Of a DNA stretch of 64,000 nt, positions 44,655-63,000 are shown piece by piece. Position 1 is the first letter of the stretch; every line of letters begins with the position of its first letter. A model generated the notes under the pieces. The model did not search any database and was not told the origin of the DNA. It worked only from the letters and a program-made list of their open reading frames with translations. The DNA comes from a virus (Duplodnaviria > Caudoviricetes), in IMG/VR virus record IMGVR_UViG_3300025121_000013. One strand, given 5' to 3'. A program made the translations under genes and the position numbers.

Positions 44655-44667
44655 ATAAAAATGTTTA

Positions 44668-44709
44668 TTCGCCAATGGGGTCCGGTTAGACATAGACCCC
44701 ATTGGCGAA
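44668..44709. terminator. 15-bp perfect hairpin between convergent genes (bidirectional terminator candidate)
   Basis: TTCGCCAATGGGGTC / GACCCCATTGGCGAA. Confidence 0.75.
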
Positions 44710-44716
44710 AGATTTC

Positions 44717-45898: not shown

Positions 45899-45974
45899 GG
45901 GGTTTCCTCTGGTTCTTTTTTAGTAGTTTTTTAGAACATTTAGAATTAGATTTAAAAAAAATAAATTTTTGTGT

Positions 45975-46500
45975 TAGGGCCTGGAGCGGTGATGTGTGCA
46001 ATGCCTTCTTGCACGGTTTGGTGTTCCCGCTCCAGGCCCAACCCTTTTCTTTTTGGGCGGTGGGGTAGACCGATGCAACTCACTCGGATTTGTACCCCAC
46101 CGCCCAGGACCCTTTAGACGTCTAAAGAGCCCTTGGTGAAGGAAAGTTTTATGCGGTCTTATGGCAGAGGCCCATGTAAGTGAGTTTGCCGGCCAGCAAG
46201 GTGGTTCCCCCAAGATCTGTTAACTTGGGGGAACCCTTTCCTTCATTCTTTTAATGGGGGAAGGTTTGGATGTGGACTTACAGACTTTCCCCGTGAGGGT
46301 ATTCGCTGTCGCCTTAACATGAAGTCATCAAGATACAAGCGCCTTGACGCACTTCCCTTCCCCCATTTGCTTCGGCCGTTGGGCTCTTGGCAAGTCCAGC
46401 GGCTAATCCCAGGCTGAGGCCGTAGCCCGGGAAAAACCACACAAATTCTACTTCGCCTAATTCCTTCCGTGCCCTGCCGGCCTCCAGAAGGTTTCGGACA
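45975..46500. ncRNA. Putative large structured ncRNA A
   Basis: Perfect stems 45977-89/46027-39 (13 bp), 46054-67/46093-106 (14 bp), 46137-46/46236-45 (10 bp), 46203-14/46224-35 (12 bp), 46253-64/46356-67 (12 bp); 16-nt palindrome 46112-27; no credible CDS. Confidence 0.65.
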
Positions 46501-46510
46501 TGATAGAATT

Positions 46511-47404
46511 CTACTTCACGGCTTCCTTGATCTTGTCCTTGGCGAAGTCCTGGATCTCGTCGACGTACTTCGTTCCGCTGTCGACCGATCCATCCGCTTT
46601 GAACTTGAGGGTTTTTTCCTGAGCCGGGAAGTCAACCCAGGACTTGAAGGAAGGGGGGCCGCCGAACAGGCCGGAGAGGAGGGTTTTTTCCTCTCCGTAG
46701 ACCATGGGGCCAAACTCCGTTGTCCCAAGGGGAACCACGATTTCATTCCTGTTCTCAACTACCCACCAGGGCTTGCTGATGCCCTGGCTGATCATCCTCT
46801 TGATCAGCCAGGACATGGTTGTCTCGGGACCCAGGACCATGCCGGCAGAGGTGATTGGCGCAATCACTGCTCCCTCCACCAGATCCCGGTATATCGTCCA
46901 CGGGAAGACGACGCTGTCCTGGCCATTCTCCTTGGCCTGGAAAACGAGGCCCTTGAGGATATGGGGATTCTTCATCCCCTCCTCGTTGGTGATCACCTGC
47001 ATCCCATCGACCGTCACGAACCTGAAACCGAGGAACTCCGGATTCTTCACCTCAGCCCGGAGTTCCTCAACAACGTCCTTGGCGAGCTGGTTTTCGCCGG
47101 AGATCGCCTTCAAGGCCAGATACATGTCCTTGGCCCCGGTGAGGCTGTTTCCCACGGAGCTCGCCACGTCCTTCATGCCTTGGGAGCTGAAGCCCCCGAA
47201 GGCCGCGAAGAGAACGATCATTCCCAGGATCATGACCAGGGTGATCTTCATCGTCCGAAGGACCTTTGTGGTTGTTTTCTTGGCCACATGTTTCAGGTAT
47301 TCCTTCGCCTTCTTGTTCTCCGTACCCTTCTCTTCTCCGACTTGGCATCCATCTTCCATTGTGTCCTCGCTTTCATGTAACATTGTTTTGGGTGAATTAC
47401 ACAA
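46511..47404 (-). CDS. GC-rich membrane-anchored hypothetical protein
   Basis: One TM helix (ITLVMILGMIVLFAAFGG); G/C-ending codons produce shadow ORFs on the other strand. Confidence 0.7.
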   Translation of the reverse strand: MCNSPKTMLHESEDTMEDGCQVGEEKGTENKKAKEYLKHVAKKTTTKVLRTMKITLVMILGMIVLFAAFGGFSSQGMKDVASSVGNSLTGAKDMYLALKAISGENQLAKDVVEELRAEVKNPEFLGFRFVTVDGMQVITNEEGMKNPHILKGLVFQAKENGQDSVVFPWTIYRDLVEGAVIAPITSAGMVLGPETTMSWLIKRMISQGISKPWWVVENRNEIVVPLGTTEFGPMVYGEEKTLLSGLFGGPPSFKSWVDFPAQEKTLKFKADGSVDSGTKYVDEIQDFAKDKIKEAVK

Positions 47405-47443
47405 TGAACGCCATTCTTTATCTGGCGTTGGTAAATGAACTTC

Positions 47444-47869
47444 CTATTCGGAAAGAAGGCCTTTTTCTCGGGCCATTCTTAGAATTGCGAGTTGGTTGAT
47501 AAGTCCAGCATCTCTGAATATTTTAATATACTTAACCAAGTCTAAATATATTTCTTCATAAGGTTCAATTTCTTTTTTCATCTTTATACAGTCTTCAATC
47601 CTATGTTTTAATAAGTGCTCGAAAATTGTATATAATTTTTCCCATTTTCCCATAGTAAAAAGCTTGTTTATATTTTCGATTATTTCGGAAAAGAGATGAT
47701 TTGCAAATTCATTATGATTTTGTGCACAGAATATCATAAACAATTTATTAATTGAATCCATGGTTGCATTAGGAAATTTATTGACATCTAATAGCGCAAA
47801 TAATGCATTTCTTTGATCGACTCCCAATTGGTTTATGATATCATTCTGTTCCTTTGTCAGCTCTAACAT
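47444..47869 (-). CDS. Hypothetical protein
   Basis: 141-aa ORF with SD (AAGGAG). Confidence 0.6.
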   Translation of the reverse strand: MLELTKEQNDIINQLGVDQRNALFALLDVNKFPNATMDSINKLFMIFCAQNHNEFANHLFSEIIENINKLFTMGKWEKLYTIFEHLLKHRIEDCIKMKKEIEPYEEIYLDLVKYIKIFRDAGLINQLAILRMAREKGLLSE

Positions 47870-47880
47870 GTTCTTTCTCC

Positions 47881-48054
47881 TTAAACTATTGGAGTTTCAT
47901 TTTTATCATCATCCTTGGTTATCAATTGAAATATGAGTTCAAAGATTTTTATCAAAATCTCAAGGGAGATTTTTAAAATTAAACCTATTAACGTTACCAT
48001 TGAAGCAAATACGCTTTCAACCACAAAGGCGATTATTTTGAGACATAAATCCAT
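47881..48054 (-). CDS. 57-aa hydrophobic peptide
   Basis: Manual translation MDLCLKIIAFVVESVFASMVTLIGLILKISLEILIKIFELIFQLITKDDDKNETPIV; overlaps the upstream stop (TAATG). Confidence 0.5.
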   Translation of the reverse strand: MDLCLKIIAFVVESVFASMVTLIGLILKISLEILIKIFELIFQLITKDDDKNETPIV

Positions 48055-48302
48055 TATTGACTCAAATCTAAAACTATTTTGTTTTGATATTTAATAATTT
48101 CACAAACCATATTTGGCAAAAGCACATATAATCTAAATGTGTCCAAATGCATCACTATATCTTTTAAATCTGTTTTCAAGAATTTATCTTTTTTTCTTTT
48201 GATTCGAAATTTATCTCCAGGTTTAAGATCTTTTATTGTTATCTCTTTTACAGTACATGATGAACTGTTCATCTTTTTCTCCATGTCTGGGATTGACTCC
48301 AC
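48054..48302 (-). CDS. Small hypothetical protein
   Basis: IKDLKPGDKF motif; in cassette. Confidence 0.5.
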   Translation of the reverse strand: MESIPDMEKKMNSSSCTVKEITIKDLKPGDKFRIKRKKDKFLKTDLKDIVMHLDTFRLYVLLPNMVCEIIKYQNKIVLDLSQ

Positions 48303-48303
48303 T

Positions 48304-48339
48304 GGGGCCGGATTGATTTCCTAATACCAATCCGGCCCC
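48304..48339. promoter_or_regulatory. 12-bp intergenic hairpin (processing site or attenuator candidate)
   Basis: GGGGCCGGATTG / CAATCCGGCCCC between co-directional genes. Confidence 0.55.
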
Positions 48340-48345
48340 CTCTGC

Positions 48346-48597
48346 TTATCTGTTGTTTTCTTCCCATCTCCGGAAGGCGATCAACAGATATCCCGCGTTC
48401 CCACCGAAAGGGCAAGATTCCCATCCCTTCCAGGTTCCAATTCTTTTAAAGGTTGCACATCCCGGCGGGGATGCGTCATTACATTCAACCACCTTGGAAA
48501 AGGGAACTTGAAATCTCCCTAATCCAGCCCCTTGGAGACAGGGATTTTGAATCATTGAAGACTCCATTTGAGGGTTGATAATTACGCAAACATCCAT
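48346..48597 (-). CDS. Small hypothetical protein
   Basis: 83-aa ORF overlapping the upstream gene. Confidence 0.45.
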   Translation of the reverse strand: MDVCVIINPQMESSMIQNPCLQGAGLGRFQVPFSKVVECNDASPPGCATFKRIGTWKGWESCPFGGNAGYLLIAFRRWEENNR

Positions 48598-48830
48598 TCG
48601 AAGGGAACTGAGAGGTTTCCCTTCTTCTGATTCTTATTATACCATTTATCTGCTTCTCTCTCCGAGACCACCCTTTCCTCCATGAGGTCACCTTTTTTGT
48701 TTCTCTTGGAAAGGATGAAAGTACTGCTTTTGAGAATGAGTTCTTCAACCGTTTCCTCGGTATGAACGACAGCGATTATATCCGACATTGTTATGTCCTC
48801 TCTGAGGGTTGATATAGGAATGAAAACCAC
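48582..48830 (-). CDS. Small hypothetical protein, first gene of the cassette
   Basis: 82-aa ORF just downstream of the 14-nt motif. Confidence 0.5.
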   Translation of the reverse strand: MVFIPISTLREDITMSDIIAVVHTEETVEELILKSSTFILSKRNKKGDLMEERVVSEREADKWYNKNQKKGNLSVPFEWMFA

Positions 48831-48852
48831 ATAAACAACTCATAACTCATTT

Positions 48853-48866
48853 ATTAATATATATAG
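48853..48866 (-). promoter_or_regulatory. ATTAATATATATAG motif, copy 2
   Basis: Exact match; heads the minus-strand cassette 44717-48830. Confidence 0.6.
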
Positions 48867-48908
48867 AAAGTAAAAGAATAAATGAAAAAAAGAAGGTATT
48901 TTTAACCT

Positions 48909-48977
48909 AAAGAACAAATTAAAAATTTGAATATTTTGGTTAAGAAAAAGTTTTTTAGATAAAGAACAAATTAAAAA
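48909..48977 (+). promoter_or_regulatory. Two copies of AAAGAACAAATTAAAAA, candidate phage promoter
   Basis: 48909-48925 and 48961-48977, upstream of the queC-like gene. Confidence 0.55.
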
Positions 48978-49009
48978 ATAGTTTTCCTCAAATCGTGAAA
49001 GGCTAAAAA

Positions 49010-49588
49010 ATGGGAACTGATAGCACATGTGATCTGGTTATTTTGTATAGTGGTGGTGCGGATAGCAGACTTATGATCGAATTTGCTTTAGGTACAAAAA
49101 AGAAACCATTTGGTGTTTTAATTGATTATGGGCAAAAACATATTGAAGAATTGAAATATGCAGAATCTCATTTATCTGAAGGAAATATTCCATATAAGAT
49201 TTTGAAAGTAAATTTAGGAGAAAATATTTCTAGTGGTTTAACTGGAAATTTAGTTTCAGGAAAATATGGAAATGCTCATCCAATGCACGTTCCTGGAAGA
49301 AATACAATCTTTTTGGGTTTGGCCTTATCCGTTGCAGAAAGTATGAATATTAAGACGGTTTGGATTGGGCCGGACTTTTCAGATTATCTAAATTCTTTTC
49401 CAGATTGTTCTCAAGAATTTATTGGACGAATGAATAATGCATCTCAAATTTCTCCATCTTATCCCATCAATATTGAAGCTCCATTATTAGGAATGACTAA
49501 AGAACTAATTAAATCTCTTCTTTCAAATCAATATCAAATTAAAGAAAATACCTATTATTCTGGTTATGAACCTCCAAAGAAAGGCTAG
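49010..49588 (+). CDS. queC: QueC-like (7-cyano-7-deazaguanine synthase family) protein lacking the C-terminal Cys cluster
   Basis: LYSGGADS, IDYGQKH..EL..A, VPGRNTIFL, FPDC..EF, IEAPL. Confidence 0.8.
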   Translation: MGTDSTCDLVILYSGGADSRLMIEFALGTKKKPFGVLIDYGQKHIEELKYAESHLSEGNIPYKILKVNLGENISSGLTGNLVSGKYGNAHPMHVPGRNTIFLGLALSVAESMNIKTVWIGPDFSDYLNSFPDCSQEFIGRMNNASQISPSYPINIEAPLLGMTKELIKSLLSNQYQIKENTYYSGYEPPKKG

Positions 49589-50786
49589 TTTAAAAATGTG
49601 GAAAACAGAACTATTATTAAATAAAGAATTAACAGAAGAACTATTTAGAATTATTGTAAATATTAAAAATAGAACTTATACAAATCAAGAAAGTCTTGAA
49701 AGAATTGTTGAGGTTTTTAAAAAAGCTTTTGATTCTTTATTTATTAATGAGCCGGTAAAACCAGAAGAAAAATGTTCTTGCTCTAAAGATGATGGATGTT
49801 CTAATTGCGGAGAAAATTCAAATCTTCAAAAAGAAAAAAATGTAATGTTAAAATCAGGAATTTTTAATGATAAAAAAATGTTTAATGGGTTAGGTTTAAC
49901 ATTAAATGAGATTTTTACTATTTATAATGAAATATTAAATTGTACTAAAAGTTCAGAAGTTCAACATGAAATTGACAAATCATGTAAATTTATTATGAAG
50001 TCAATTACTAATCAATTAAATAAAAAAGATGAAAATAAAGATGGTAACGTTGATCATTTAACAGCTTATATTCCGCCATTTGATTCTAAAATCATTGAAG
50101 AAATTAGAAAAGAAAAAACTGATAAGGAACAAATTAAAAATAGTCAGGAAAAAGAAATTAAAATCTGTCATTGTTCTGAAAATGAAAAGTGTGAAGCATG
50201 TAATAATATATTGAATGATCATGATGAAGAAAAAATTGCTTTTTATATGGCTAAGTCTTTTTTGCCCTATGACGTAGTAAAACAATGTTTAAACTTTCTT
50301 CCAGAAATTGAAGATTTCAAAGAATTTCCTCAGCCTTCCGAATCAGAAAAACACCCTTTTAATGTTTCATGTTTAGAAAGCATGAAAAATATTAACAAGG
50401 AACAAATTAAAAAATCTTCAAATGATATGAAAATTAAAAATAGTCAGGGAAAAGATATCAGTATGTATAATACTGGTCTTTCAGCTAAAAGAGAAAATTG
50501 GGCAGCTTTTGCAAAATTAATTGCAAATCAATTTGAACATGGCGGTGAAAAATATGCATTAATCAATGATATGGAACATACAGATTTTGTTTGTCTTTTA
50601 AGTCCAGGAAAAACTGGAGTCGATTGGATTATTCAAACAATTGTAAAATATTGTGGAAGATTCTTGAATCAAAAAAGAGAAAAAGATCTTTTGAAAATTG
50701 CAACGTATTGTTTTTTAGCTTGGATTAAATGTGGGTTTCATTTGAATCAGGATCATGATGAAGATGTAAAGAAGTCAAATAACTAA
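49566..50786 (+). CDS. Mosaic protein with a C-terminal DUF3310/nucleotide-hydrolase-like helical domain
   Basis: C-terminus HGGEKY...IVKYCGRF...REKDLLKIATY; two CxCx4CxxC motifs. Confidence 0.5.
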   Translation: MNLQRKASLKMWKTELLLNKELTEELFRIIVNIKNRTYTNQESLERIVEVFKKAFDSLFINEPVKPEEKCSCSKDDGCSNCGENSNLQKEKNVMLKSGIFNDKKMFNGLGLTLNEIFTIYNEILNCTKSSEVQHEIDKSCKFIMKSITNQLNKKDENKDGNVDHLTAYIPPFDSKIIEEIRKEKTDKEQIKNSQEKEIKICHCSENEKCEACNNILNDHDEEKIAFYMAKSFLPYDVVKQCLNFLPEIEDFKEFPQPSESEKHPFNVSCLESMKNINKEQIKKSSNDMKIKNSQGKDISMYNTGLSAKRENWAAFAKLIANQFEHGGEKYALINDMEHTDFVCLLSPGKTGVDWIIQTIVKYCGRFLNQKREKDLLKIATYCFLAWIKCGFHLNQDHDEDVKKSNN

Positions 50787-50809
50787 AAGAAAAGGATTTA
50801 AAAAAAGAA

Positions 50810-51157
50810 ATGAAGTTCAATGTTTTCATGACTGGTTTTTCGGCTAAGGAATCTGGAGAAATTATCCAAAAGTATGGCAAGACTCAAAACATCTCTGCGA
50901 TCAATGATATTATGGGAGATGGCGATTATCATATTGAAATGTCCAAGAATAAGATTGAGAATGCAGATTTTCTTTTGGTAGGAAGTTTGAATAAGATGAT
51001 GTCAGGAATGCAGATTTATTTCGCTCGGACTTTGAACAAGCCAGTCGTTTCGGTTGATCCCGACGATTCCGAAGTTTGTAATCTTTGGTTTTTGGATAAC
51101 GTGACAAAGACCGTTGTTTCTGTCGGGGATTTCTTCAAGTATTTGAGTGAGTTTTAA
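50810..51157 (+). CDS. Nucleoside 2-deoxyribosyltransferase-like protein
   Basis: KIENADFLLV...SGMQIYFA..LNKPVV; about 115-aa Rossmannoid fold. Confidence 0.55.
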   Translation: MKFNVFMTGFSAKESGEIIQKYGKTQNISAINDIMGDGDYHIEMSKNKIENADFLLVGSLNKMMSGMQIYFARTLNKPVVSVDPDDSEVCNLWFLDNVTKTVVSVGDFFKYLSEF

Positions 51158-51211
51158 TTTTTGGCTTGAATTCTCTGTTGGGGATTTCTTCAAGTATTTG
51201 AGCGAGTTTTA
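51125..51211 (+). repeat. 32-nt direct repeat pair (1 mismatch) separated by 23 nt
   Basis: GGGGATTTCTTCAAGTATTTGAG(T/C)GAGTTTTA at 51125-51156 and 51180-51211. Confidence 0.9.
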
Positions 51212-51214
51212 GAT

Positions 51215-51829
51215 ATGATATCCGGTGAGATTTCTAAGGAATCTTTTGATAAGAAAGTGAGTGCGAAAATGAATAAGGGAAAGCAAGTGGATTCTTTTCC
51301 GGGAACGGGAATTAAGATTGGATCGGGAATGGAAACTAATGAAGCGAAGGAAACGTCTGCGGGAATTAATATGGGCGAGATAGCAAAAGATAGAGATATG
51401 AATAAACTGAACCTTGGAGATGGAAGGTTTGGCTTGGAAGATAGAGATGTGGCAACAAAGCTTCTCGATAAAAATTTTAGTCCCATGATAATTCGAAAAT
51501 ATACACGAATTGGGTTTCCACTTTTTGTTAGCTTAATTTGTGATGAGAATTTGGATGATTTGGATAATGTAGTTCATGACTGTATAGATTTTTGCAGAGA
51601 TAATAATATCTTAAGAAACAATATTCAATCCCTCAGAAATTTTACTGGAATTTTATCTGATACAATTAATACGCATTATGATAAAAAGAAACGTGGCTGT
51701 GTTGAGTCAATATCCATAATTTTATATGCTGACAAGCTCCTGCTGAGTTCACTTCAAGGCGACGCGATGAATTTTTTAGCTTGTCGAATGGAACTTTATG
51801 AATCTTTGAATTTGATGGCTAAGATTTAA
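51215..51829 (+). CDS. Hypothetical protein
   Basis: 204-aa ORF. Confidence 0.55.
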   Translation: MISGEISKESFDKKVSAKMNKGKQVDSFPGTGIKIGSGMETNEAKETSAGINMGEIAKDRDMNKLNLGDGRFGLEDRDVATKLLDKNFSPMIIRKYTRIGFPLFVSLICDENLDDLDNVVHDCIDFCRDNNILRNNIQSLRNFTGILSDTINTHYDKKKRGCVESISIILYADKLLLSSLQGDAMNFLACRMELYESLNLMAKI

Positions 51830-51836
51830 GAATTAA

Positions 51837-51900
51837 TTTCATATCGACACCCATTATGAATAAGAACAAAATATAAATCATAATGGGTGTCGATATGAAA
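51837..51900 (+). promoter_or_regulatory. 23-bp perfect inverted repeat with the AAGAACAAA motif in its 18-nt loop
   Basis: TTTCATATCGACACCCATTATGA / TCATAATGGGTGTCGATATGAAA; abuts the AAGGAG SD of the HNH gene. Confidence 0.75.
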
Positions 51901-52875
51901 AGGAGCTTTAAAATGAGTGAAGAAAATTTTCCTTTATGTGATTGTGGGTGTGGAAAAGAAGTTACTAAAAAAACTAATAAATATTTATGGGGTCATAATA
52001 AGAATGTGGTTACTGATGAAACTCGTCAAAAATTAAGAGATGCTAATTTAGGGATTACTTTAGAAATGCGACATGGTGAAGAAAAAGCAAAAGAAATAAA
52101 GAGAAAAATTGGATTAAAGAGCAAAGAAAGAATTCCTTATCAAAAAGGAAAAACTTGGGAAGAATTATATAGTAAAGAAGGGTCAGAAAAATTAAGAGAA
52201 AGATTAAAAGAAACCCATACAAATAATCCAATATTTAAAGATCGCAAGGGGCCGAGGAATCCATATTATAAAGGAGCTAAGGATAGTCTTTATAAACATT
52301 GGAGTCCAAAAATAACAGAAGATAAAAATAGAGAAAACAAAGATAAGAAAATAGAAGTTAAATGTACATATTGTGGAAAGTGGTATGTTCCAACACAAAT
52401 TGAATTAGATAATAGAATTGGAGCAGTTAGAAAAAATAATGGAATAGGTTGTAATTTTTATTGCTCTGGTGAATGCAAAAAATTGTGTCCAGATCATTAT
52501 CAAGTGTTGTGGCCAAAAAATCACAAACCGTATAATATTAAGAAAGATGATACGCCCAATCTAACAAATGAACACGGACATAATTTCTCAGTCGAAGTCA
52601 ATCCCCTCATCCGAAAACTCGTCTTTGAAAGAGACAATTGGGAATGTCAAAGATGCAATGTCCAAGAAAGTCTTCAATGTCATCATATTGACCCAATCGC
52701 TCTTAATCCCGGCTTCGCAAACGACATAGATTCTTGTATCACACTTTGCATAGAATGTCATCAATCAGTCCATAAAACTATCGAAGGCTGTGGATACAAC
52801 GATCTCAAAAACGAAAAACAAAATCGAATTCAAGGCTGTCCTGAAAAGCAAGAGGTAACAAATGGCGAAATATAA
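51883..52875 (+). CDS. HNH homing endonuclease with NUMOD3-like DNA-binding repeats (likely start 51913)
   Basis: LCDCGCG, ETRQKLRDANLG repeats, CQRC...LQCHHIDP...CITLCIECH..VH. Confidence 0.85.
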   Translation: MGVDMKRSFKMSEENFPLCDCGCGKEVTKKTNKYLWGHNKNVVTDETRQKLRDANLGITLEMRHGEEKAKEIKRKIGLKSKERIPYQKGKTWEELYSKEGSEKLRERLKETHTNNPIFKDRKGPRNPYYKGAKDSLYKHWSPKITEDKNRENKDKKIEVKCTYCGKWYVPTQIELDNRIGAVRKNNGIGCNFYCSGECKKLCPDHYQVLWPKNHKPYNIKKDDTPNLTNEHGHNFSVEVNPLIRKLVFERDNWECQRCNVQESLQCHHIDPIALNPGFANDIDSCITLCIECHQSVHKTIEGCGYNDLKNEKQNRIQGCPEKQEVTNGEI

Positions 52876-53248
52876 AACTATAAATAACCTTCTTCAAAAT
52901 AATAATGATAAAATGAACGCAGTCATTTTTTCTGGATTTGAAAATGGGATTCCTCAAGTTGTGGTTAGACCGATTTTATTTTGGGGAATTTTCGATATTG
53001 AAGATGATGAAGATAAAAATTTTTTAGAACAAGAAATAGTGGGAATGATATATTATAGTGGGAAAATCGGACCTTGTACAGATTCAAAGATTTTTATGAC
53101 TTATGTTTCTTCTGAAGATGAATTAGAACTTTTGATCAGTTCTTTAAATGAAGAAGATTTTAATGAAATGATAAATCCTGGAGAAAAGGAAGAAGTGAAA
53201 GAGGAAGGTAAAATTATCAATATAGATTTCGGAAAGAAGAAAACATGA
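52862..53248 (+). CDS. Hypothetical acidic protein
   Basis: 128-aa ORF. Confidence 0.55.
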   Translation: MAKYKTINNLLQNNNDKMNAVIFSGFENGIPQVVVRPILFWGIFDIEDDEDKNFLEQEIVGMIYYSGKIGPCTDSKIFMTYVSSEDELELLISSLNEEDFNEMINPGEKEEVKEEGKIINIDFGKKKT

Positions 53249-53727
53249 ATGTGATTATGGCTCCACATCCAGATGATGAGATTATAGGTTGTTTTGAGAT
53301 TTTAAAAAAAGGAAATTGTGTAGTTAATTTTACAACAAAATTAAATAAAGAGAGAGCGGAAGAATGTTTGAATTTGAGAAATCATTTTGATGTTAAATTT
53401 ATATATTTTCAATATTCTGTTCCTCCAGCTTTTTTATCAATAAAAAATACTTTTTATTTTCCACATCCGATTTATGAAACTCATCCGGAACATAGATTAT
53501 TGGGACAACATGGTGAAAGGCTTTTAAGAAATGGTTACAATGTAATTTTTTATTCGACAATAATGAATGCGCCTTTTATATTTGAAACGCCTTTTTCAGA
53601 AGAAAAGAAAAAGGTTTTAAATTTATTGTATCCAAGTCAAAAATCTTTATGGGAATATGATTATAAATATTTCTTGTTTTCAGGGTATGACAAATGGCTT
53701 ATTGAATTAGGAAATGAAAATGGCTAG
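53245..53727 (+). CDS. PIG-L/LmbE family deacetylase (compact)
   Basis: APHPDDEIIGC, HPEHR. Confidence 0.8.
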   Translation: MNVIMAPHPDDEIIGCFEILKKGNCVVNFTTKLNKERAEECLNLRNHFDVKFIYFQYSVPPAFLSIKNTFYFPHPIYETHPEHRLLGQHGERLLRNGYNVIFYSTIMNAPFIFETPFSEEKKKVLNLLYPSQKSLWEYDYKYFLFSGYDKWLIELGNENG

Positions 53728-54673
53728 ATTGATTTTTGTACCACAACTTCCTATAAAGATGAGATATAGCGAATGGTGGTTTACAGAGTTTCCAAAGAAT
53801 GTTCAAGATGCTTTTAGCGAAGTCATTGTTTTAGGAAAAAATAATATTCCTCAAAATGCTGATAATTCGGGATTATTTTCTAATACAGAAATGGCTATTA
53901 AATTTGAGCTATCTCAAGTTGAAGAATATCTTGATTTAAAACTAGAAAAAAATGATGTTTTATTTCATGCTGATTTAAGTTTTCCAGGAGTTTTTCATTC
54001 AGTTTTATTTCATAAAAAACCAAAGTTAAGTTTATGCTTTTGTCATGGCTCATCATTAAATAAATATGATTATTTTCAAAAAGTAAGAAAAGAAAAATAT
54101 TTAGTTGAACAGGGCATGGCAAATAATTATGATTATATTTTAGTTGGAAGCGTTTATCATGCCCTTAAATTAAAAGGCATAAAAAATATAATGATCACAG
54201 GACTTCCACAACCATATGATATTTTTAATGATGAAATATTCAATTCAAATAAAATAATTGACATAACTTCTGTGTCTAGATCTTGTATACAAAAATCTAC
54301 AAAAAAAATAGAGAGAGAAATAGAAAAAGAATTTAACACAAAAATTATTAGAAAATCATTTGACTCATGGAAAGATTATTATCAACATTTAGCAAATTCT
54401 AAAATTCTTTTAATTTCCTCAAAAGAAGATACATTTAATTATTCAATTTTAGATGCATATTTAATGGGTTGTATCCCTTTGGCTCCAAATAGATTAGCTT
54501 TTCCCGAATTATTACCAAGAGAATATTTATATAATAATATTGAAGAATTAAAAGATAAAATTAAAAAAATTTTTAGAGGAGAATTAAAACCGTTGAAAGA
54601 ATTAAATAATCAATATAAGGTTGATCACTTTTATGAAATCTTTGAGAGCGTTATAAATGAGACTTTAAATTAA
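53714..54673 (+). CDS. GT-B glycosyltransferase
   Basis: SSKEDTFNYSILDA...GCIPLAPNRLAFPELL (GT4-like Ex7E region). Confidence 0.75.
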   Translation: MKMARLIFVPQLPIKMRYSEWWFTEFPKNVQDAFSEVIVLGKNNIPQNADNSGLFSNTEMAIKFELSQVEEYLDLKLEKNDVLFHADLSFPGVFHSVLFHKKPKLSLCFCHGSSLNKYDYFQKVRKEKYLVEQGMANNYDYILVGSVYHALKLKGIKNIMITGLPQPYDIFNDEIFNSNKIIDITSVSRSCIQKSTKKIEREIEKEFNTKIIRKSFDSWKDYYQHLANSKILLISSKEDTFNYSILDAYLMGCIPLAPNRLAFPELLPREYLYNNIEELKDKIKKIFRGELKPLKELNNQYKVDHFYEIFESVINETLN

Positions 54674-54694
54674 CAAAACTTTAAAACATAGTAT

Positions 54695-54743
54695 GACCTC
54701 AAGACAGGGATAAGGGAATTTCAAAAGTCCCTGTCTTGAGGTC
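54695..54743. terminator. 16-bp perfect hairpin between convergent units
   Basis: GACCTCAAGACAGGGA / TCCCTGTCTTGAGGTC. Confidence 0.75.
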
Positions 54744-54941
54744 TTCTGAATATCATTAATTCCAGATGAAAAGTATTCCTACTAACCAAAAAAATGGAAT
54801 GAATTCACTCGGATCTTTTTGAAACATCAAAACTGCTGCGGCACTAATTGCAATTGTCCCAACCCCTTGACAGGCTGGTTTCATGTCAAATCCTTTCTTA
54901 GAGAGAATAACCAATTCAATTCTTTATTATTTTTTGAATAA

Positions 54942-55433
54942 TTAATTTTCTAAAGTATCGATTTTAATACCAACTAAATTTAGATTTTCATTAAGGATAT
55001 GCAGGAATTTTTCCTTTCTTGCATTTCCCACGAATATTCCCATCCCCAAAGTTATCAACAATGGAGAGCCGTTTGTCAGACCAACCACTTTTTTGGAAAG
55101 TTCATCCATTGACACCTTATCAGATGCCTTTAGCCATAGAAGAGACGTCTGGATCAAAGGCAGTATGGATTCTTTTGAGCCACGATAAGAAATTATATCT
55201 TTACACCCGCAAACTCTGGTGCTCAATTTAATTTCAGTAATTTCAGAAATATTTCCCCCAAACATCAATTCCCATCTCACCAAATTTTTTATTGCATCCA
55301 GAACAAAAAATTCGGTTTTGACCGCAGGAATATTTTCCTTGTCTCTTGAGTCATTGAATATTCTGAAATTGGTTTTTGTTATTATTCCTTCCATTAGGTT
55401 TTGACCTTGTTCTGTTAGAGCCCCTCGGTCCAT
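54942..55433 (-). CDS. Hypothetical protein
   Basis: 163-aa ORF with SD. Confidence 0.55.
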   Translation of the reverse strand: MDRGALTEQGQNLMEGIITKTNFRIFNDSRDKENIPAVKTEFFVLDAIKNLVRWELMFGGNISEITEIKLSTRVCGCKDIISYRGSKESILPLIQTSLLWLKASDKVSMDELSKKVVGLTNGSPLLITLGMGIFVGNARKEKFLHILNENLNLVGIKIDTLEN

Positions 55434-55448
55434 GCTTTTATCCCCCTT

Positions 55449-55844
55449 TTAATCTGAAGTGATTCTAGTTTTCTCAAAATTTTCCATTTTCGTATCATAA
55501 AGAATTTTTATCAATGAATTAAAAATCCATATACACATTAAGAATGTATGTCCAAAAGTTCCTAAACTAATTATATAAAATATCCATAATATATTTTTAA
55601 AATAGAATATAAAATCTTTTTTAAATTCAAGCTTCTTTTTCGTATATATAAATGCTAAATCAAATAAATTTTCCTTAAAGAATAAAATAGGCATAGAAAC
55701 GATTAATGCTAAGGTAATGAGAATTGTATAGAATATGAACACATCAAAAAATATATAGTTTTTAAAATAAACACCATAAATAAATATTCCTAAAAATATC
55801 AATTGAAAAAACATTTGTGAAAAATATTTTTTTAGGTTTTCCAT
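55449..55844 (-). CDS. Multi-pass membrane protein
   Basis: Three hydrophobic segments. Confidence 0.55.
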   Translation of the reverse strand: MENLKKYFSQMFFQLIFLGIFIYGVYFKNYIFFDVFIFYTILITLALIVSMPILFFKENLFDLAFIYTKKKLEFKKDFIFYFKNILWIFYIISLGTFGHTFLMCIWIFNSLIKILYDTKMENFEKTRITSD

Positions 55845-55892
55845 TCTTAGAATAGTCCTTTCATTAAGTGGGTATAAAAATCCTTCTCGTTT

Positions 55893-55906
55893 ATTAATAT
55901 ATATAG
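55893..55906 (-). promoter_or_regulatory. ATTAATATATATAG motif, copy 3
   Basis: Exact match; heads the minus-strand cassette ending at the 54695 hairpin. Confidence 0.6.
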
Positions 55907-55974
55907 TTAGAAATTAAAAAACAAAAAGAAAAATATTTAGAATAAAAGAACAAAAATTTAAAAGGATAAAAGAT

Positions 55975-56526
55975 ATGCCATTTAAGACTTTTTTTAATTG
56001 GCTTTTTGACGATTCAATCAATTCTGAAATTCCAAAACCTAAATTAAATGAAGAAGGTAAAGTTTTAATTCCTGATATTTTGAAATACAATTCTCCAATC
56101 ACTCATACCTATGTAATTTCTTTATTTTTAAATAGTCCTGAATTAAATCATTTTTTAAATAAAAAATTTAATAATATCAATTTAAGATATTTAGAAAAAA
56201 AGGAATTATTCTTATTCATTAAAAAGTGTGTAATTGATTTTAGAATTAAAAGAAATATGATGCTTTATAAACCTTATAAAAAACAAGAAGAATTATTTAA
56301 AGGTTTAAGAAGTAAAATTCCTTTATTAAAAAATGATGATATAGAATTATTATCAGACCTTTGTTTAAAATTACCAGATGAAGAAAAAGATGAAATATAT
56401 TCTGGATTGGGCTTATTGAAGGAAAAACCAGTTAAAACAAAAATCAAAAAAGAAACTAAAAAGAAGCAAAAAAATAAGATTAGTAAAGATGACTTCTTAA
56501 AAAATATAAGTGTGATTAAGAAATAG
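55975..56526 (+). CDS. Hypothetical protein, possibly clamp loader small subunit (gp62-like)
   Basis: 183 aa with a Lys-rich tail; weak pattern resemblance; AAAGAACAAA motif at 55945. Confidence 0.35.
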   Translation: MPFKTFFNWLFDDSINSEIPKPKLNEEGKVLIPDILKYNSPITHTYVISLFLNSPELNHFLNKKFNNINLRYLEKKELFLFIKKCVIDFRIKRNMMLYKPYKKQEELFKGLRSKIPLLKNDDIELLSDLCLKLPDEEKDEIYSGLGLLKEKPVKTKIKKETKKKQKNKISKDDFLKNISVIKK

Positions 56527-56535
56527 AATTTTGGA

Positions 56536-57065
56536 TGGATGGGCCCCAAAGGCGGAATGACGGCGCCGGTTGGGGCCCATCCAGAATTACTAGGCAAAGG
56601 CCTGCGAGAGCAAAGGGGTTTCTCTCAGCTGCAGGCCTTTGCCTTTCTGCGGTGAAGCGATCTAAGTCTTCCAATCCACGAGAGCCCAGCGTCCCAGGTC
56701 TCTTGGTTTGGGATTGGATAGCCTTAGACCATCTTTCGCTTTTTCATGGCACGCCCTTTCAAAGTTGGGGTTGGTTTTCACTCCAGGTGCTCCGGACTTC
56801 TGGCGGTCAGTGAAAAGCTATCCGTGTTCTAAACAGGAAAAACCTCAACACGAGGTATTTCATCCTGTCTCCTTTCGATGATGGTTCATTCCAAGGTTTC
56901 CCAGAATTAAGTTTCCCTTGTCTAAATGAAACGTGGCTGGAGATCACAGGGCGTTGCCCAAGCGTAACGGATAAGAGGAAAGTCTAGATCTTCTTAACTA
57001 ACAGATCCGAAAATTCCTTAGTTCCGTTTCTAGTGACCCGCAGTTTTCCCTCATGCCCTTGAGGA
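56536..57065. ncRNA. Putative large structured ncRNA B downstream of rpsA
   Basis: Perfect stems 56536-49/56570-83 (14 bp) and 56592-605/56631-44 (14 bp); long irregular hairpin about 56652-56746; further stems TTTTCACT/AGTGAAAA, ACAGGA/TCCTGT, ACGGA/TCCGT. Confidence 0.65.
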
Positions 57066-57098
57066 CCACAAATTAACGATTATCAATATCCCCCATCT

Positions 57099-58754
57099 CT
57101 ACTTCGTTTCGCTTCTCTTCATGACAAAACGGGGCTTGTTGAACCCCGGCTTTCCCTTGGAAGTCGGCCCTCCTCCCTCCATCTTGTTGATGGAGAAGGC
57201 CATCTTCCGTTCCTCCTTGTTGATGGAGACCACTTTGGCCTCCACGGAAGATCCGACCGGGAACGAGCCGGCGAGGTTCTTCGTCAGGTCCTTGGGGATC
57301 TCGGAAACGTGGACCAGGCCTCGCAGTCCGCCCTCAAGGGAGAGGAACACGCCGTAGTCGGCGGTCCCGGTCACCGTGCCGCAGATCTTCGTTCCGACGG
57401 GGAACCTTTCCCCGACGGTATCCCAGGGATCGGGCTCCAGTTGCTTGACGCCCAGGGCAATCCGCCCTGAAGAGGGATCGATCCGGATGATCTTGGCCCG
57501 GATCGTTTCCCCGATGTGATAAAGCTCAGCGGGCGTCTTGATGTGCCCGGTCCAGGAGATGTCCGAGATGTGGACCATGCCGTCGATTCCCTCATCGATG
57601 CCGAGGAAGATCCCGAAGTCGGTCATGGCCTTGATCTTGGACTCGATGGTGGTGCCCACCGGGTACTTCTCGCTGACGCTCTCGATGGGGTCCTTCTTGA
57701 TGGCCTTCATGGACAGGGCCAGCTTTCTCTGGGCCGGGTCGATCTCGAGGACGATGGCCTCGATCTCCTGGCCGATCTCCACGACGCTTGCAGGGTTCTT
57801 CACCCTCTGGTGGCTGATTTCCGTGGTGTAAATCAGGCCACGGATCATGGGGGCCACCTCGACGAATATCCCGTATTCGGTCGTCGAGGTCACCAGGGCC
57901 CGGATCTTCGTGCCCTTCTTGAACTTCTCGGCGGCCTCGATCCAGGGATCCGGAAGGAGCCGCTTGATGCTCAGCTCGATCTTCTCTTCCTCGGCGTTGA
58001 CGTTGACGACCTTCACCTCGATGTTCTGGCCCACGGTGTACTCCTGGGTCAGATCCGTGATCTTTCCCCAGGAGACCTCCGAGATGTGGACGAGGCCATC
58101 TACACCTCCGAGGTCAAGGAACAGGCCGAACTTGGTGATGGCCTTGATGTCCCCCTTGACGACGGAGTCTGGAATGATCCGGGCAAAGGCTTCGGCCATG
58201 TTGGCCTCCCTCTCCTTCTCCAGGATCGCCCTCCTGGACACGATGACATTCCTCGTGTCCTCGTTGAAGGTGATGATCTTGAAGTTCATCGCCTTTCCCA
58301 GCACCTCTTCGGCCGAAACGGGGTGAAGGTCCACCTGGGAGCCGGGAAGGAAGGCGGGAACGCCGATGTCCACGGAGAAGCCGCCCTTGACCTGGTTTTT
58401 TACCAGGCCGAGGATATCGAGACCTCCCACGTAGGTTTCCTTGAGGCTTTCCCAGGTCACTCCCATGTTCTTTCCTATGGAGATCTGGACGGGCCGTCCA
58501 TCCTTCTCGAGGCCATCGAGAATGACTTCGATGAAGTCACCCTCCTTGACGGCCAGGCTTCCATCCTTGGTCGGAAGATCTCCGACCGGGATCAAGCCCA
58601 TGGTCATGCATCCCACGTCGACCATGGCGTTGATCTCGTTGATCTGGGTGATCACGCCGTCGACGACCGTGCCGATTTTGAAGATCTTCGGCTCGAAAAT
58701 CGACATGACGTTGTCTTGGGTGTATTCTGAATCTCGAACAGACGTCTTTTCCAT
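57099..58754 (-). CDS. rpsA: 30S ribosomal protein S1, six S1 domains, GC-rich
   Basis: VKGGFSVDIGVPAFLPGSQVD; FGLFLDLGGVDGLVHISEVSW; FGIF....GIDGMVHISDISW; LGVKQL..DPW; SD AAGGAG. Confidence 0.95.
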   Translation of the reverse strand: MEKTSVRDSEYTQDNVMSIFEPKIFKIGTVVDGVITQINEINAMVDVGCMTMGLIPVGDLPTKDGSLAVKEGDFIEVILDGLEKDGRPVQISIGKNMGVTWESLKETYVGGLDILGLVKNQVKGGFSVDIGVPAFLPGSQVDLHPVSAEEVLGKAMNFKIITFNEDTRNVIVSRRAILEKEREANMAEAFARIIPDSVVKGDIKAITKFGLFLDLGGVDGLVHISEVSWGKITDLTQEYTVGQNIEVKVVNVNAEEEKIELSIKRLLPDPWIEAAEKFKKGTKIRALVTSTTEYGIFVEVAPMIRGLIYTTEISHQRVKNPASVVEIGQEIEAIVLEIDPAQRKLALSMKAIKKDPIESVSEKYPVGTTIESKIKAMTDFGIFLGIDEGIDGMVHISDISWTGHIKTPAELYHIGETIRAKIIRIDPSSGRIALGVKQLEPDPWDTVGERFPVGTKICGTVTGTADYGVFLSLEGGLRGLVHVSEIPKDLTKNLAGSFPVGSSVEAKVVSINKEERKMAFSINKMEGGGPTSKGKPGFNKPRFVMKRSETK

Positions 58755-58819
58755 GTAACATTCTCCTTGTTGTGAGGTGGTATGGTTTGATTCTGAGACG
58801 ATTTTCTGGAACTTGGGGA

Positions 58820-59446
58820 CTAGATCTCGAACCCGGAGGCCCGGATTTCCTTCTTGAGGGCCAGGGGGATCCTCACCTTGGACAACTCAATCCCGGAACC
58901 CAGACAGGTGGGACAATCCCTCGAGCTCTTGATCTTCCTCCCGAGGACCGGCTCGGTGCATTTTCCTGCCCCCTTGCACTTCGGGCAGGGCACATCATCT
59001 GCCCGGAAGCGATTCTTCCGGTGCACATACACGCCGGTGCCGTTGCACCGGGAACATGTTTCCACTTCGCCGGCCCGGCCGCCGCAGACGGCGCAGACGT
59101 CTGTCCGGATCCCCCGGCCTCCGCAGGATGGGCAGGTGATTTCCTCCTCCCCTATCTGGAAGATGAACTTCTGACCCGCCCCCTTGCAGGCGGGGCAGAT
59201 GGGGGATGAGGGTGCCACCGACCAGGATTCTCCTGCCTCGATGGCGGCCCGGATCTTTTCGTTCTTGGCCGCCATGATGGCCTTGAACTCCTCCATGGTC
59301 TTGGTTTTCGAAATCAGGGACTCCAGACCCCGAACCTCATTGATGTCCACGTACTGGATTTCAACCTCGGCTGCATCATCCATCGGTAACATCCCTTCGT
59401 GTGGGTTTCGGCGGAAGCTCCGCCATGATGACCTTGACCATTTCAA
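58820..59446 (-). CDS. Protein with six DnaJ-type CxxCxGxG motifs and no J domain
   Basis: CPACKGAG, CPSCGGRG, CAVCGGRAG, CSRCNGTG, CPKCKGAG, CPTCLGSG. Confidence 0.8.
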   Translation of the reverse strand: MKWSRSSWRSFRRNPHEGMLPMDDAAEVEIQYVDINEVRGLESLISKTKTMEEFKAIMAAKNEKIRAAIEAGESWSVAPSSPICPACKGAGQKFIFQIGEEEITCPSCGGRGIRTDVCAVCGGRAGEVETCSRCNGTGVYVHRKNRFRADDVPCPKCKGAGKCTEPVLGRKIKSSRDCPTCLGSGIELSKVRIPLALKKEIRASGFEI

Positions 59447-59813
59447 GGTCCTTTTCTTTTTTTATTGCCATGAGCATGAGAGCGGAGCCCACCAAAATTC
59501 CTCTCTCAGAACATATGACTCCTTGTTTCTGTATCGAATTTAAGATTTTGGAAACTTCATCGTCAAGTCTCCAAAATTCTTTTATCGGAGTTCCAGGGGT
59601 TTGACTCATGTCATTTAATTTCTGAGCAATGGTTGATATTCTTTTCCACCCATGTCGAATTCTTTTAATCATTTCAGAAGCCTCTGTTTCAAGATTTCTT
59701 TGAACATTTATTTCTTTCTTGCCCAATTTTTTGTATTCTTTTCCAGAACCTTTTCCGGCTTTTTTGGATTTCTTTTGCTCAGCCATTCGTTTTCTCCTTG
59801 GACGTTGTAACAT
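59376..59813 (-). CDS. Basic hypothetical protein, first gene of the rpsA cassette
   Basis: 145-aa ORF with a Lys-rich N-terminus; SD AAGGAG before MAEQKK. Confidence 0.55.
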   Translation of the reverse strand: MLQRPRRKRMAEQKKSKKAGKGSGKEYKKLGKKEINVQRNLETEASEMIKRIRHGWKRISTIAQKLNDMSQTPGTPIKEFWRLDDEVSKILNSIQKQGVICSERGILVGSALMLMAIKKEKDLEMVKVIMAELPPKPTRRDVTDG

Positions 59814-59903
59814 ATTTTTAGTTTATTATATTCTGTAAAGTTAATATAATTTATCCCCATAAAGTGAGTATAAAAAATGTGTATTAAATATCTCAATTCA
59901 TTA

Positions 59904-59917
59904 ATTAATATATATAG
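59904..59917 (-). promoter_or_regulatory. ATTAATATATATAG motif, copy 4
   Basis: Exact match; heads the rpsA cassette. Confidence 0.6.
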
Positions 59918-60026
59918 GTTCAAAAAGAAAACATAAAAGAATCTTGTCGTTCTTCAAGATTTTAAATAAAGAAAAAATATAAAAGTAAAAGAACAAATTA
60001 TTGTAAACTTTTAAAAGGAGGATTCT

Positions 60027-63000
60027 TTGGAATCAATAAAAAGTTCTTTGGGAAACTGTATGGAATGTTCTTTACAAAACGAACCTTCTTGTATTTTAGA
60101 AACAAATTGTGAAGATGATCTTTCAAAAGTCGATGTAATTTTCGTAGCAGAAAATCCAGGAAAAGAAGAAGTGGAATATATTCCTCCCACTCCACTTATA
60201 GGAAAGTCTGGACAAACTTTTAGAAAATATTTTAAGAAATTAAAACTTGATAAATTGAATTATTTAATTACAAATGTAGTTTGGTGTTTAACTTTAAATG
60301 AAGATGGAACAACAGGAAATCCTTCACAAAAGGTTATAGATTGTTGTAAAGAAAATTGCTTTGAGTTAATAAGAAATTGTAATCCAAAGTTGATTGTAAT
60401 TATGGGAAATTCTCCTTTGTCTGCATTCAATATTGCAAAGACTGGAGTCACAAAATGTAGAGGTAAAATTTACGATTGGGAAGATTATAAAATTTTCGTG
60501 ACAGTTCATCCATCTTATGTAAATAGAAATAGGATTGTTGAAGAGCCTGAATTTGAAAGAGATTTATCAAAGGTCGCAGAGTTCTTTGGAATAAAAAATG
60601 ATATTGAACAAGGAAAAGAAAGAAATATAAATATTACAAATATAAAAGGAAAATATCAATATTCTATACCTGAGAAATATTATACAGATAATTATCGGTT
60701 GGTCGATGTCCAATATTTAGGAAGAAAAAGAGAAGTCATTTATATTTTTAGAGATAAAGATAATAAAAAGGAGATTTATAAAACAGATGATAAATATTAT
60801 TGTTATACATGTTTAGATGATAATGAAAAGAAAAAAATTGTACCCTATGAAAAACTTAATCAAACGTTTTTACATTATTCTGATAAATCTTTATTAGATT
60901 TTAATTGTACGTATGAGGGTGATAATAGAATTACGTCGAAACATGCGTTAGATTATTATTTGAATTCAAAAGGCGAGGCTCCTAAACTTGATTTAAATAT
61001 TATGTATTTTGATATTGAGGTTGACACTGGAGAATCTCGTTCATTTCCAAAACCCACTGAAGCAAATTATCCAATCAATTTAATCACAAAGATTTATCAT
61101 AAGATTAAAACCACATATGTCATTGATAATAAAACAGAGGAAATTCAAAATATTGAAGGGGTTATTATAAAGAAGTTTAAAAACGAAAGAGATTTAATGT
61201 CATCTTTTATTTCTGATTTTAAGAATGATGACCCTGATATTCTGAGTGGTTGGAATTGTATCGATTTTGACCTCCAGTATATTTTTAATAGATTACCTAA
61301 AATAAATATTCGTCAAGAATCTATGTCTAAATTTGGTGAATTTTATGTTGATGGAAAAAGATTTGTTTGTAATCTTGCAGGGTGTGTTCCTTTGGACCAA
61401 TGCTTTTTATATAAGAATTTTACCTTCACAAAAAAGGAAAATTATAAATTAGGATTTATCGCCCAAGATGAATTAGGTTATACGAAAGTCGCAATGGATC
61501 TTCCGATCAATCAAATGTATTCAAAACTTTTAAATAAATTCATTGGTTATAACATTCGAGATACGGAACTTCTTGAAGGCCTTGAAAATAAACTAGAACA
61601 TATAAATCTCTTAAATGAAATTAGAACTATTTGTCATACGAGTTTTGATAATTGTTCGACATTTGGCCAGATTGATGCAATGTTAATTTCTTTTTTGAAG
61701 CAAAGAGGGTTTGGTTCAAAGAATAGTAATCAACATATGGAAAAAGTTAAATATGCAGGGGCTTTTGTTTTTGAGCCAATTCCTGGCATTTATGAAAAGG
61801 TTGTAGACTTTGACTTTAAATCACTATATCCAAGTTTGATCATTACATACAATATTGGAATAAATAATTTTAGAATTAAATTAGAGGATCCTTCTTTGGG
61901 GTTTGAATTATCGAAACACCCGGAGAATCTTCCTGATGAAATATCTGTAATTTTTGATCCAACTTTCAGAGCTGAGAAAAAAATTATAAAGAAGGAAGCA
62001 CTTCTTAACATCATTAAAAAAAATAATTATATTCATACAATTAATGGTTGTTTATTTGAAAATCATGATAAAGAGTTATCTGTTTTAGGAGAAGCTTTAA
62101 AAGAGATTTTAGATTCTCGTGATAGATATAAGAAGATGATGTTTAAAGCCGTAGAAGAAAAGAAAAATGACGAATCAAAATTTTATGATACAAGGCAACA
62201 AGTTTATAAGGTTTTGGCAAATGGAACATATGGAGTTTTAGGAAATAAAGCATTTAGATTTTATGATGAATCTTGTGCTGGTGCAATTACATTATCAGGT
62301 CAAGAAGCTTTAAAGAATTCAATTATTTATGGAAATAATTTTATGGAAAGTTTAAATTTAGAAAAGCCGATGGTAATTCCTGATGAGATAACTAAGAAAG
62401 AAATTTTCTCAGATGAAATGCCTGATATTAGAAAAAGGATCAAATATATTGTAACTGGAGATACCGATTCAATTTTTTGTTGTTTTGAAAAATTTAAAAA
62501 GGAAAAGAATGTTGAAAATATTAGAGGCTGGTGTAAAGAAATTGAAAATTATTTAAATAATGTTATTATGCCACATATTGTTAGAACACATAATGTCGAT
62601 CCAAAAAATAGTGTTTTAAAATTAAAAAATGAATTGATTATTTCTCGTGGATTATTTTTAGCAAAAAAGAGATACGCAATTCATGTTATAAATAATGAAG
62701 GAAAATCTGTTGATAAAATGAAATTTATGGGTGTTGAAATTAAAAGATCAGATTATCCGCAAAAGTCAAAAGAGTTTTTAACTGAGTTGGTAAATTTGAT
62801 TTTAAAATCAGAAAAAGTTTCTATTACAAAATTAATGAAATTTGTAGAGATGAAAGAAAAAGAATTTATTGAGGCAATAAATAATGGAGAAAAAACAATC
62901 GCAAGACCTGTTTCAATTGGAAAAGAGATAGAAGAATATAAGACTGTTCCTCAAGGAACAAAGGCTATGTTGAATTTTAATGATTTAATTTATGACGCTC

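Follow-up and report, generated by a model that had tools for sequence, protein, structure and literature searches.

REP/BIME-type 3' hairpins protect the upstream mRNA against 3' exonucleases. A canonical intrinsic terminator, as we use the term here, is a GC-rich stem with a loop of 3-8 nt and with a U-tract right after the stem. Large ornate RNAs associated with phages, such as the classes GOLLD, ROOL, HEARO, and OLE, were found via GC-rich stretches, free of open reading frames (ORFs), in AT-rich genomes. The Escherichia coli rpsA gene, which encodes ribosomal protein S1, has a translational operator: a 5' leader at the start codon by which S1 regulates its own synthesis. S1 binds mainly single-stranded, A/U-rich RNA.

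S1-like proteins have also been reported from a few huge phage genomes (PMC7162821). Here, we describe the sequence downstream of an rpsA gene in a stretch of 64,000 nt of phage DNA (the window), which is part of a groundwater jumbo phage of about 265 kb and 26% GC. The window contains phage genes (polB, which is fused to UDG, and genes for QueC and a VWA protein), and identical copies of it are found on contigs of 264-274 kb in several groundwater assemblies. It is therefore from a huge phage like those in that work.

A GC-rich cassette in an AT-rich phage genome

Nearly all of the window is 25-30% GC, and this AT-rich background is broken by three GC-rich patches. GC3 is 77-83% in the genes of these islands, as compared to 16-22% in the resident genes. 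On their 3' side, three minus-strand genes are followed by GC-rich non-coding tails, at 45899-46510 (RNA A), 48303-48581 (RNA C), and 56527-57098 (RNA B). That several compositionally foreign blocks, along with their non-coding tails, are kept in a genome of 26% GC is of some interest in itself. The features that we will refer to are as follows.

13179, 48304, and 51837: intergenic junction hairpins
44668-44709: junction hairpin at a convergent junction
45900-47440: GC-rich patch 1, with ORF297 and RNA A
48303-48581: GC-rich patch 2, RNA C
54695-54743: junction hairpin at a convergent junction
55975-56526, plus strand: orf183, a resident gene of the phage, AT-rich, which converges with rpsA
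56527-59500: GC-rich patch 3, with the RNA B stretch, rpsA, and a DnaJ-type zinc-finger gene
56536-56583, equally stable on both strands: junction hairpin 1, with a perfect 14-bp stem, a 20-nt loop, and a 4-bp inner stem
56592-56644: junction hairpin 2, with a perfect 14-bp stem and a 25-nt loop that contains an inner stem
56655-56735, minus strand: third hairpin, imperfect, about 80 nt
56740-57098, minus strand: spacer of about 360 nt and 45-47% GC, directly 3' of the rpsA stop, non-coding
56807-56863, minus strand: small ORF of 18 codons behind AAGGAG, a weak candidate that is probably due to chance
57099-58754, minus strand: rpsA, encoding a six-domain ribosomal protein S1, GC3 83%
58820-59446, minus strand: gene for a DnaJ-type CXXCXGXG zinc-finger protein, GC3 77%, with AT-rich syntenic counterparts in two related phages (L026 and L031)

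RNA B is 572 nt without a gene (56527-57098), between the stop codon of rpsA (57099, minus strand) and the convergent stop codon of orf183 (56526, plus strand). It is 49% GC, versus 21% in the neighboring orf183, and according to the gene table, it is the largest gap without genes within a neighborhood of 21.6 kb. It contains no ORF of more than 92 amino acids and has no codon (3-base) periodicity: across 120-nt windows of the spacer, the GC phase difference is 0.05-0.15, as compared to 0.25-0.5 in rpsA. We rejected the idea that the spacer is a decayed GC3-rich gene, as a drop from 58% to 46% GC should leave a phase difference of about 0.3. Using tblastn, we found no match between the spacer and the genes that flank rpsA (cmk, sppA, and others) in the one bacterial locus that we examined (L025). 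RNA B does not contain any direct repeats, and there is no copy of it or of its hairpins elsewhere in the 64-kb window.

No other protein that we found is more than 47% identical to this S1 (the best of them is Desulfobacterota-like), and the zinc-finger protein is an orphan in protein searches. The proteins of this block are of the GC type in their amino acid usage as well as at synonymous sites. For example, the zinc-finger protein has FYMINK of 0.25 and GARP of 0.31, versus 0.40 and 0.21 for its counterpart in L026. Such usage is more readily explained if the block evolved in a GC-rich genome than if only its synonymous sites were recoded. A module from an unsampled GC-rich relative may have replaced what was there, or the block may have evolved in place. 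From composition alone, and with no donor visible, we infer that the block may have been imported recently. Because the block is compositionally foreign, its 49% GC tail can ride along without selection. The age of the block is our main uncertainty: if it is young, then a passenger tail of 46-49% GC needs no function, and if it is old, then the GC content implies constraint.

We also note that the zinc-finger gene has the same place and orientation in three phages (58820-59446 in the window, 6161-6628 in L026, and 2356-2856 in L031). In L026, the gene is AT-rich and its protein is FYMINK-rich, while in the window, GC3 is 77% and the protein is GARP-rich, so here a resident syntenic gene has a foreign composition. 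In patch 1, ORF297 (46511-47404, GC3 77%) has one predicted membrane helix (by eye), and among 5.8 billion proteins, it has no homologue except its own copies. Within the last 50 nt of rpsA, about 30 nt before the stop codon, there is a canonical terminator-like hairpin on the minus strand (a GC stem and then TTTT, 57130-57148). It may be a terminator that was retained from the source of the gene and is now crossed by the reading frame.

Some assemblies differ from the window within the cassette. The NCBI copy (L001) is missing about 76-78 nt of rpsA, at about 57658-57733, so that its S1 has 525 amino acids rather than 551, and in an ENA scaffold (L002), 57717-57726 within rpsA is a string of N. 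The gap at 57658-57733 may reflect a difficulty of assembly, or one of the S1 domains may be polymorphic for an indel. In run X9, one contig of low depth (2.7x) connects 56484 with 59993 through 20 unrelated letters. This joint is below our threshold for listing, and it may represent a variant or a relative that lacks the whole rpsA cassette. The exact orf183 protein occurs in 24 contigs, all of which have the identical arrangement and none of which lacks the island.

Folding of RNA B and of its GC-rich counterparts

According to an earlier note on this DNA, the low-coordinate end of RNA B has two consecutive stems of 13-14 bp, each with an internal loop and a short apical stem, and this description holds. 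Both stems are perfect and have 14 bp (56536-56549/56570-56583 and 56592-56605/56631-56644), and both carry a small internal loop and an apical stem of 4-8 bp. Hairpin 1 starts 10 nt past the orf183 stop, or 1 nt past it in an alternative register. The 121-nt module of two hairpins has a folding z of -8.0 on the minus strand and -7.1 on the plus strand. Even a single perfect stem of 13 bp was reached in only 0.3% of 1,000 dinucleotide shuffles of RNA B; two stems of 14 bp are far beyond chance. The third hairpin (about 56655-56735) is moderately significant: on the minus strand, none of 200 shuffles was as stable (z = -3.6), and on the plus strand, z = -2.3. The four main stems of RNA A and RNA B contain only Watson-Crick pairs and are equally stable on both strands, as might be expected if they act in both directions or if they are young.

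Neither of the two terminal hairpins of RNA B has the form of a canonical intrinsic (Rho-independent) terminator: the loops span 20-25 nt, no run of five or more U is present, and a scan for the consensus omits both of them. On the plus strand, hairpin 2 is followed by a short U-rich tail.

The earlier note had described about 530 nt of continuous hairpins, and this is refuted by the folding of the rest of RNA B. The whole region has z of -5.1/-5.3, which stems from the terminal hairpins, as 56650-57098 alone is near chance. This segment of 449 nt, with the two hairpins removed, has z = -1.2 on the minus strand and z = -1.5 on the plus strand, values that were matched by 12 of 100 and 9 of 100 shuffles. 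The 349 nt nearest to rpsA (56750-57098) have z = -0.05, and in six overlapping windows of 150 nt, with starts from 56675 to 57050, z ranges from +1.0 to -1.6. Apart from the two 14-bp stems, no local perfect stem exceeds 8 bp (the longest have 8, 8, 7, and 7 bp), which is the level of the shuffles (mean maximum of 7.2). So about 210 nt (56530-56740) are structured, and about 360 nt (56740-57098) fold no better than shuffled sequence. A large structured non-coding RNA would generically show excess folding along the whole element, while in RNA B, only 56530-56740 is significant. A folding z near zero is nevertheless compatible with a functional RNA.

As the earlier note had claimed, RNA A has the same layout of paired stems at its low-coordinate end (13 bp at 45977-45989/46027-46039 and 14 bp at 46054-46067/46093-46106), and it has no sequence similarity to RNA B except for 10-13-mers that are expected by chance. 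The likeness between RNA A and RNA B is confined to these tandem hairpins. Once the terminal hairpins are removed, the body of RNA A (46113-46510, 398 nt) has z = -6.1 on the minus strand (-162.8 kcal/mol), versus z = -1.2 for the body of RNA B. So the architecture that was proposed to be common to both is indeed common at the ends but not in the bodies, and we found neither the sequence nor the body structure that would make them one family. On the plus strand, the body of RNA A has z = -2.8 (-141.5 kcal/mol). Because it folds more strongly on the minus strand, this points to an RNA-level fold on the strand that is sense for the gene. RNA A is a much better candidate than RNA B for a real structured RNA: it looks genuinely folded, and it merits attention that RNA B does not.

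RNA C is a GC-rich, ORF-free stretch of 279 nt (48303-48581) between two small minus-strand ORFs. At its start is a hairpin with a perfect stem of 12 bp (48304-48339), and the body folds with z = -3.4. Low-depth contigs from run X9 skip 48055-48331 and 48577-48824 and keep the intervening segment with two base changes, which hints that the RNA C segment is better conserved than the ORFs that flank it.

Junction hairpins in related phages and database searches

Other intergenic junctions in the window hold hairpins like those of RNA B, with a perfect stem of 12-23 bp and a loop of 9-25 nt (see the list above). By scanning metagenomes with polB, we identified relatives of the phage: L026 (56% identical), L031 (54%), and L028 (46%). 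In L026 and L031, the gene order is an orf183-like gene on the plus strand, a zinc-finger gene on the minus strand, and polB on the plus strand. The homologues of orf183 are 44% identical in L026 and 55% identical in L031, and the zinc-finger proteins of L026, L031, and the window are 26-31% identical to one another. In both relatives, there is one long hairpin between the convergent stops of the orf183-like gene and the zinc-finger gene (6117-6157 in L026 and 2305-2355 in L031). The junction hairpins of L026, L031, and the window are unrelated in sequence, and it is their position and form that are conserved. This is as would be expected if they punctuate the ends of transcripts. The hairpins of RNA B fit this pattern, as they have long perfect stems and loops within the range of 9-25 nt and lie at a junction that is syntenic in the relatives. 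That a clade of huge phages marks its junctions with long perfect hairpins without U-tracts bears on how transcription ends.

None of the relatives (46-56% polB identity) has rpsA, the trailer, or a GC island at this locus. So the block of orf145, the zinc-finger gene, rpsA, and the trailer departs from the ground plan of the clade.

We searched the whole window with the covariance models of Rfam 15, which cover GOLLD, ROOL, HEARO, and OLE as well as group I and II introns, tmRNA, RNase P, and 6S, and found no match at the gathering threshold. The best score below the threshold was for Thr_leader, on the two hairpins (26.6 bits versus a threshold of 55), and the spacer (56740-57098) did not match any Rfam family even at E <= 10. 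Similarly, the island DNA had no similarity to phage records, and the exact hairpin word is absent from IMG/VR. Across 596 Gb of prokaryote genomes, the arms of hairpin 1 had one match, to a hairpin between convergent genes of Rhodococcus gannanensis (L062 5329-5365). Its 13-nt arms are identical to those of hairpin 1, and 17 nt are common on one side. We rejected it as a relative of hairpin 1: the flanks have no similarity, so the match is probably due to chance among GC-rich terminator stems.

All public copies of RNA B are 100% identical, and contigs of four groundwater runs over 44500-60500 have no variant letters in it. (Variants at 57573-57641, in rpsA, were rejected because they derive from the rpsA of other organisms.) Among sequencing runs, the sequence was found in 12 DNA runs from 6 studies and in no RNA run. 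A query of IMG/VR with the S1 protein gave no match, while a query with an S1 alignment gave four loci that were at most 35% identical and were mostly at contig ends. In the INPHARED match to S1 that we inspected ("Microcystis phage MaAM05"), rpsA lies among ispH, rplU, rpmA, and ruvA.

The 13-mer TTAATATATATAG has four exact copies on the plus strand of the window (4023, 48854, 55894, and 59905), all in divergent junctions upstream of plus-strand genes. With one mismatch, there are five matches in the window versus 0.6 expected. It also occurs upstream of polB in L026 (about 6688-6700), and it is probably a promoter element of the whole clade. Since this motif, the one promoter-like motif that we tested, has no copy inside RNA B, we expect that RNA B, if it is transcribed, is a trailer of rpsA or read-through from orf183. 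We also predicted duplexes between the tail and the starts of the cassette's genes. For the start region of rpsA, there was no pairing above that of shuffles (z = +1.3). The start of the zinc-finger gene gave z = -2.6 and the start of orf145 gave z = -0.2, so a single one of the three tests, all of them on GC-rich sequences, gave a weak value.

Explanations for RNA B and comparison with known systems

We lean, if only slightly, towards the view that the 572 nt are an untranslated passenger: the 3' trailer of a GC-rich cassette, closed by two or three junction hairpins that resemble terminators or act as stabilizers. The trailer would belong to the minus-strand cassette of orf145, the zinc-finger gene, and rpsA. 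Its real structural element would be the distal 210 nt or so (56530-56740), where transcription from rpsA would meet the convergent transcript of orf183. The hairpins would act on the RNA of both strands, by stopping or pausing transcription, by blocking 3' exonucleases, or both, and they would thereby insulate the two convergent units. The spacer of about 360 nt would be passenger sequence that arrived with the compositionally foreign GC-rich block. Position and form suggest the role of terminator or 3' stabilizer; given the large loops, the lack of a proper U-tract, and the absence of the hairpins from the terminator scan, it is mainly from their position that we infer this role. If this is correct, then RNA B is an ordinary untranslated trailer with terminator-like hairpins, and it is neither a new large RNA nor evidence for a particle of S1 and RNA. 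Against this reading, the hairpins are not canonical terminators, with no proper U-tract and with loops of 20-25 nt. Also, the 572-nt gap is the largest nearby and is one of three GC-rich tails, of which RNA A and RNA C are significantly folded, so RNA B could be a weaker-folding member of a set. And if the block is old, then a neutral spacer would be expected to have drifted towards some 20% GC, so that the 46% GC seen here would speak for constraint.

It seems rather unlikely to us that RNA B is instead a functional structured RNA, such as a stable RNA derived from the 3' UTR or a tail that stabilizes the mRNA, in a set with RNA A and RNA C and possibly bound by S1. GC-rich tails do recur 3' of minus-strand genes at three sites, the bodies of RNA A (z = -6.1, with a preference for the minus strand) and RNA C (z = -3.4) are folded, the distal 210 nt of RNA B are strongly folded, and a GC content far above the intergenic level of the genome needs either recency or constraint. 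But the 360-450 nt of the body of RNA B fold at the level of shuffles, it is unlike RNA A in both sequence and body structure, its hairpins are of the generic junction type, the relatives lack the element, there is no match in Rfam, and the promoter-like motif that we tested has no copy in it. Also, because S1 prefers single-stranded, A/U-rich RNA, perfect GC-rich helices would be atypical ligands and not obvious ones. For these reasons, of the earlier suggestion of a family of functional RNAs or 3' modules, we keep only the common 3' module (each of the two GC-rich cassettes has a long non-coding tail with two perfect hairpins at its end), and not the large functional RNAs or the S1-RNA particle. 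Nothing that we measured supports such a particle. A broader version, which we consider quite improbable, is that RNAs A, B, and C form a phage-specific class of 3' tails, rich in GC, which act as RNA, with the unstructured body of RNA B serving as a single-stranded platform for S1. Such tails might be processed to stable RNAs, or they might protect, or recruit for, the few host-like GC-rich messages.

The perfect palindromes could also act as DNA, at a boundary where the GC-rich cassettes recombined in. They would then be a site for a recombinase or nuclease or form a hairpin or cruciform, as in attC, REP, or double-hairpin elements. All three GC-rich segments open at their low-coordinate edge with a perfect hairpin (56536, 45977, and 48304), these hairpins are within 1-10 nt of the switch in composition, and their stems are free of G-U pairs and mismatches. 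Nevertheless, we find this very doubtful. The hairpin sequences all differ, and the 64-kb window contains neither several copies of one family nor conserved core sites of the kind that would mark REP, attC, or double-hairpin elements (attC-like core sites were not seen on reading the sequence). Checks of ORFs and Pfam found no integrase or transposase adjoining the islands, and hairpins of the same type occur at AT-rich resident junctions and in relatives that lack the islands. It is highly improbable that the spacer is the remnant of a decayed gene or that it conceals a gene for a small protein, such as the 18-codon ORF at 56863-56807. This ORF encodes a hydrophobic and basic peptide and has AAGGAG 5 nt before its ATG, but such a motif and ATG arise by chance at about 1% per strand, and we inspected many such patterns. 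As for a pseudogene, we saw neither residual codon periodicity (no 120-nt window has the value of about 0.3 that a half-decayed GC3-rich gene would show) nor protein similarity to the rpsA-flanking genes of L025.

How does an untranslated trailer with junction hairpins compare to known systems? As with the E. coli rpsA operator, S1 could bind to RNA B as a structured RNA in cis, but RNA B lies 3' of rpsA, and its predicted pairing with the rpsA start is not above that of shuffles (z = +1.3). Like GOLLD, ROOL, HEARO, and OLE, it comprises some hundreds of nt that are GC-rich and free of ORFs within an AT-rich phage genome, but it has no match to a covariance model, no excess folding in its body, and no homologues. 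RNA A, too, is a tail of about 600 nt behind a GC-rich gene of the minus strand and has two perfect 13-14 bp hairpins with inner stems at its end, but its body is strongly and asymmetrically folded, and it lies between co-directional genes rather than convergent genes. As in REP/BIME elements, there are tandem stable palindromes in the 3' untranslated region at a convergent junction. REPs are families of repeated sequences, however, while the hairpins of RNA B are unique in sequence. Lastly, consider the bidirectional terminators of convergent genes in bacteria and phages. RNA B departs from these in having two or three tandem hairpins, loops of 20-25 nt with inner stems, no clear U-tract, and 360 nt of spacer before the hairpins. 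As in those terminators, GC-rich symmetric hairpins lie exactly between convergent stops, and the position is kept in relatives while the sequence is free. The Rhodococcus hairpin, which lies in the same setting, has the same 13-nt arms, a match that is compatible with chance.
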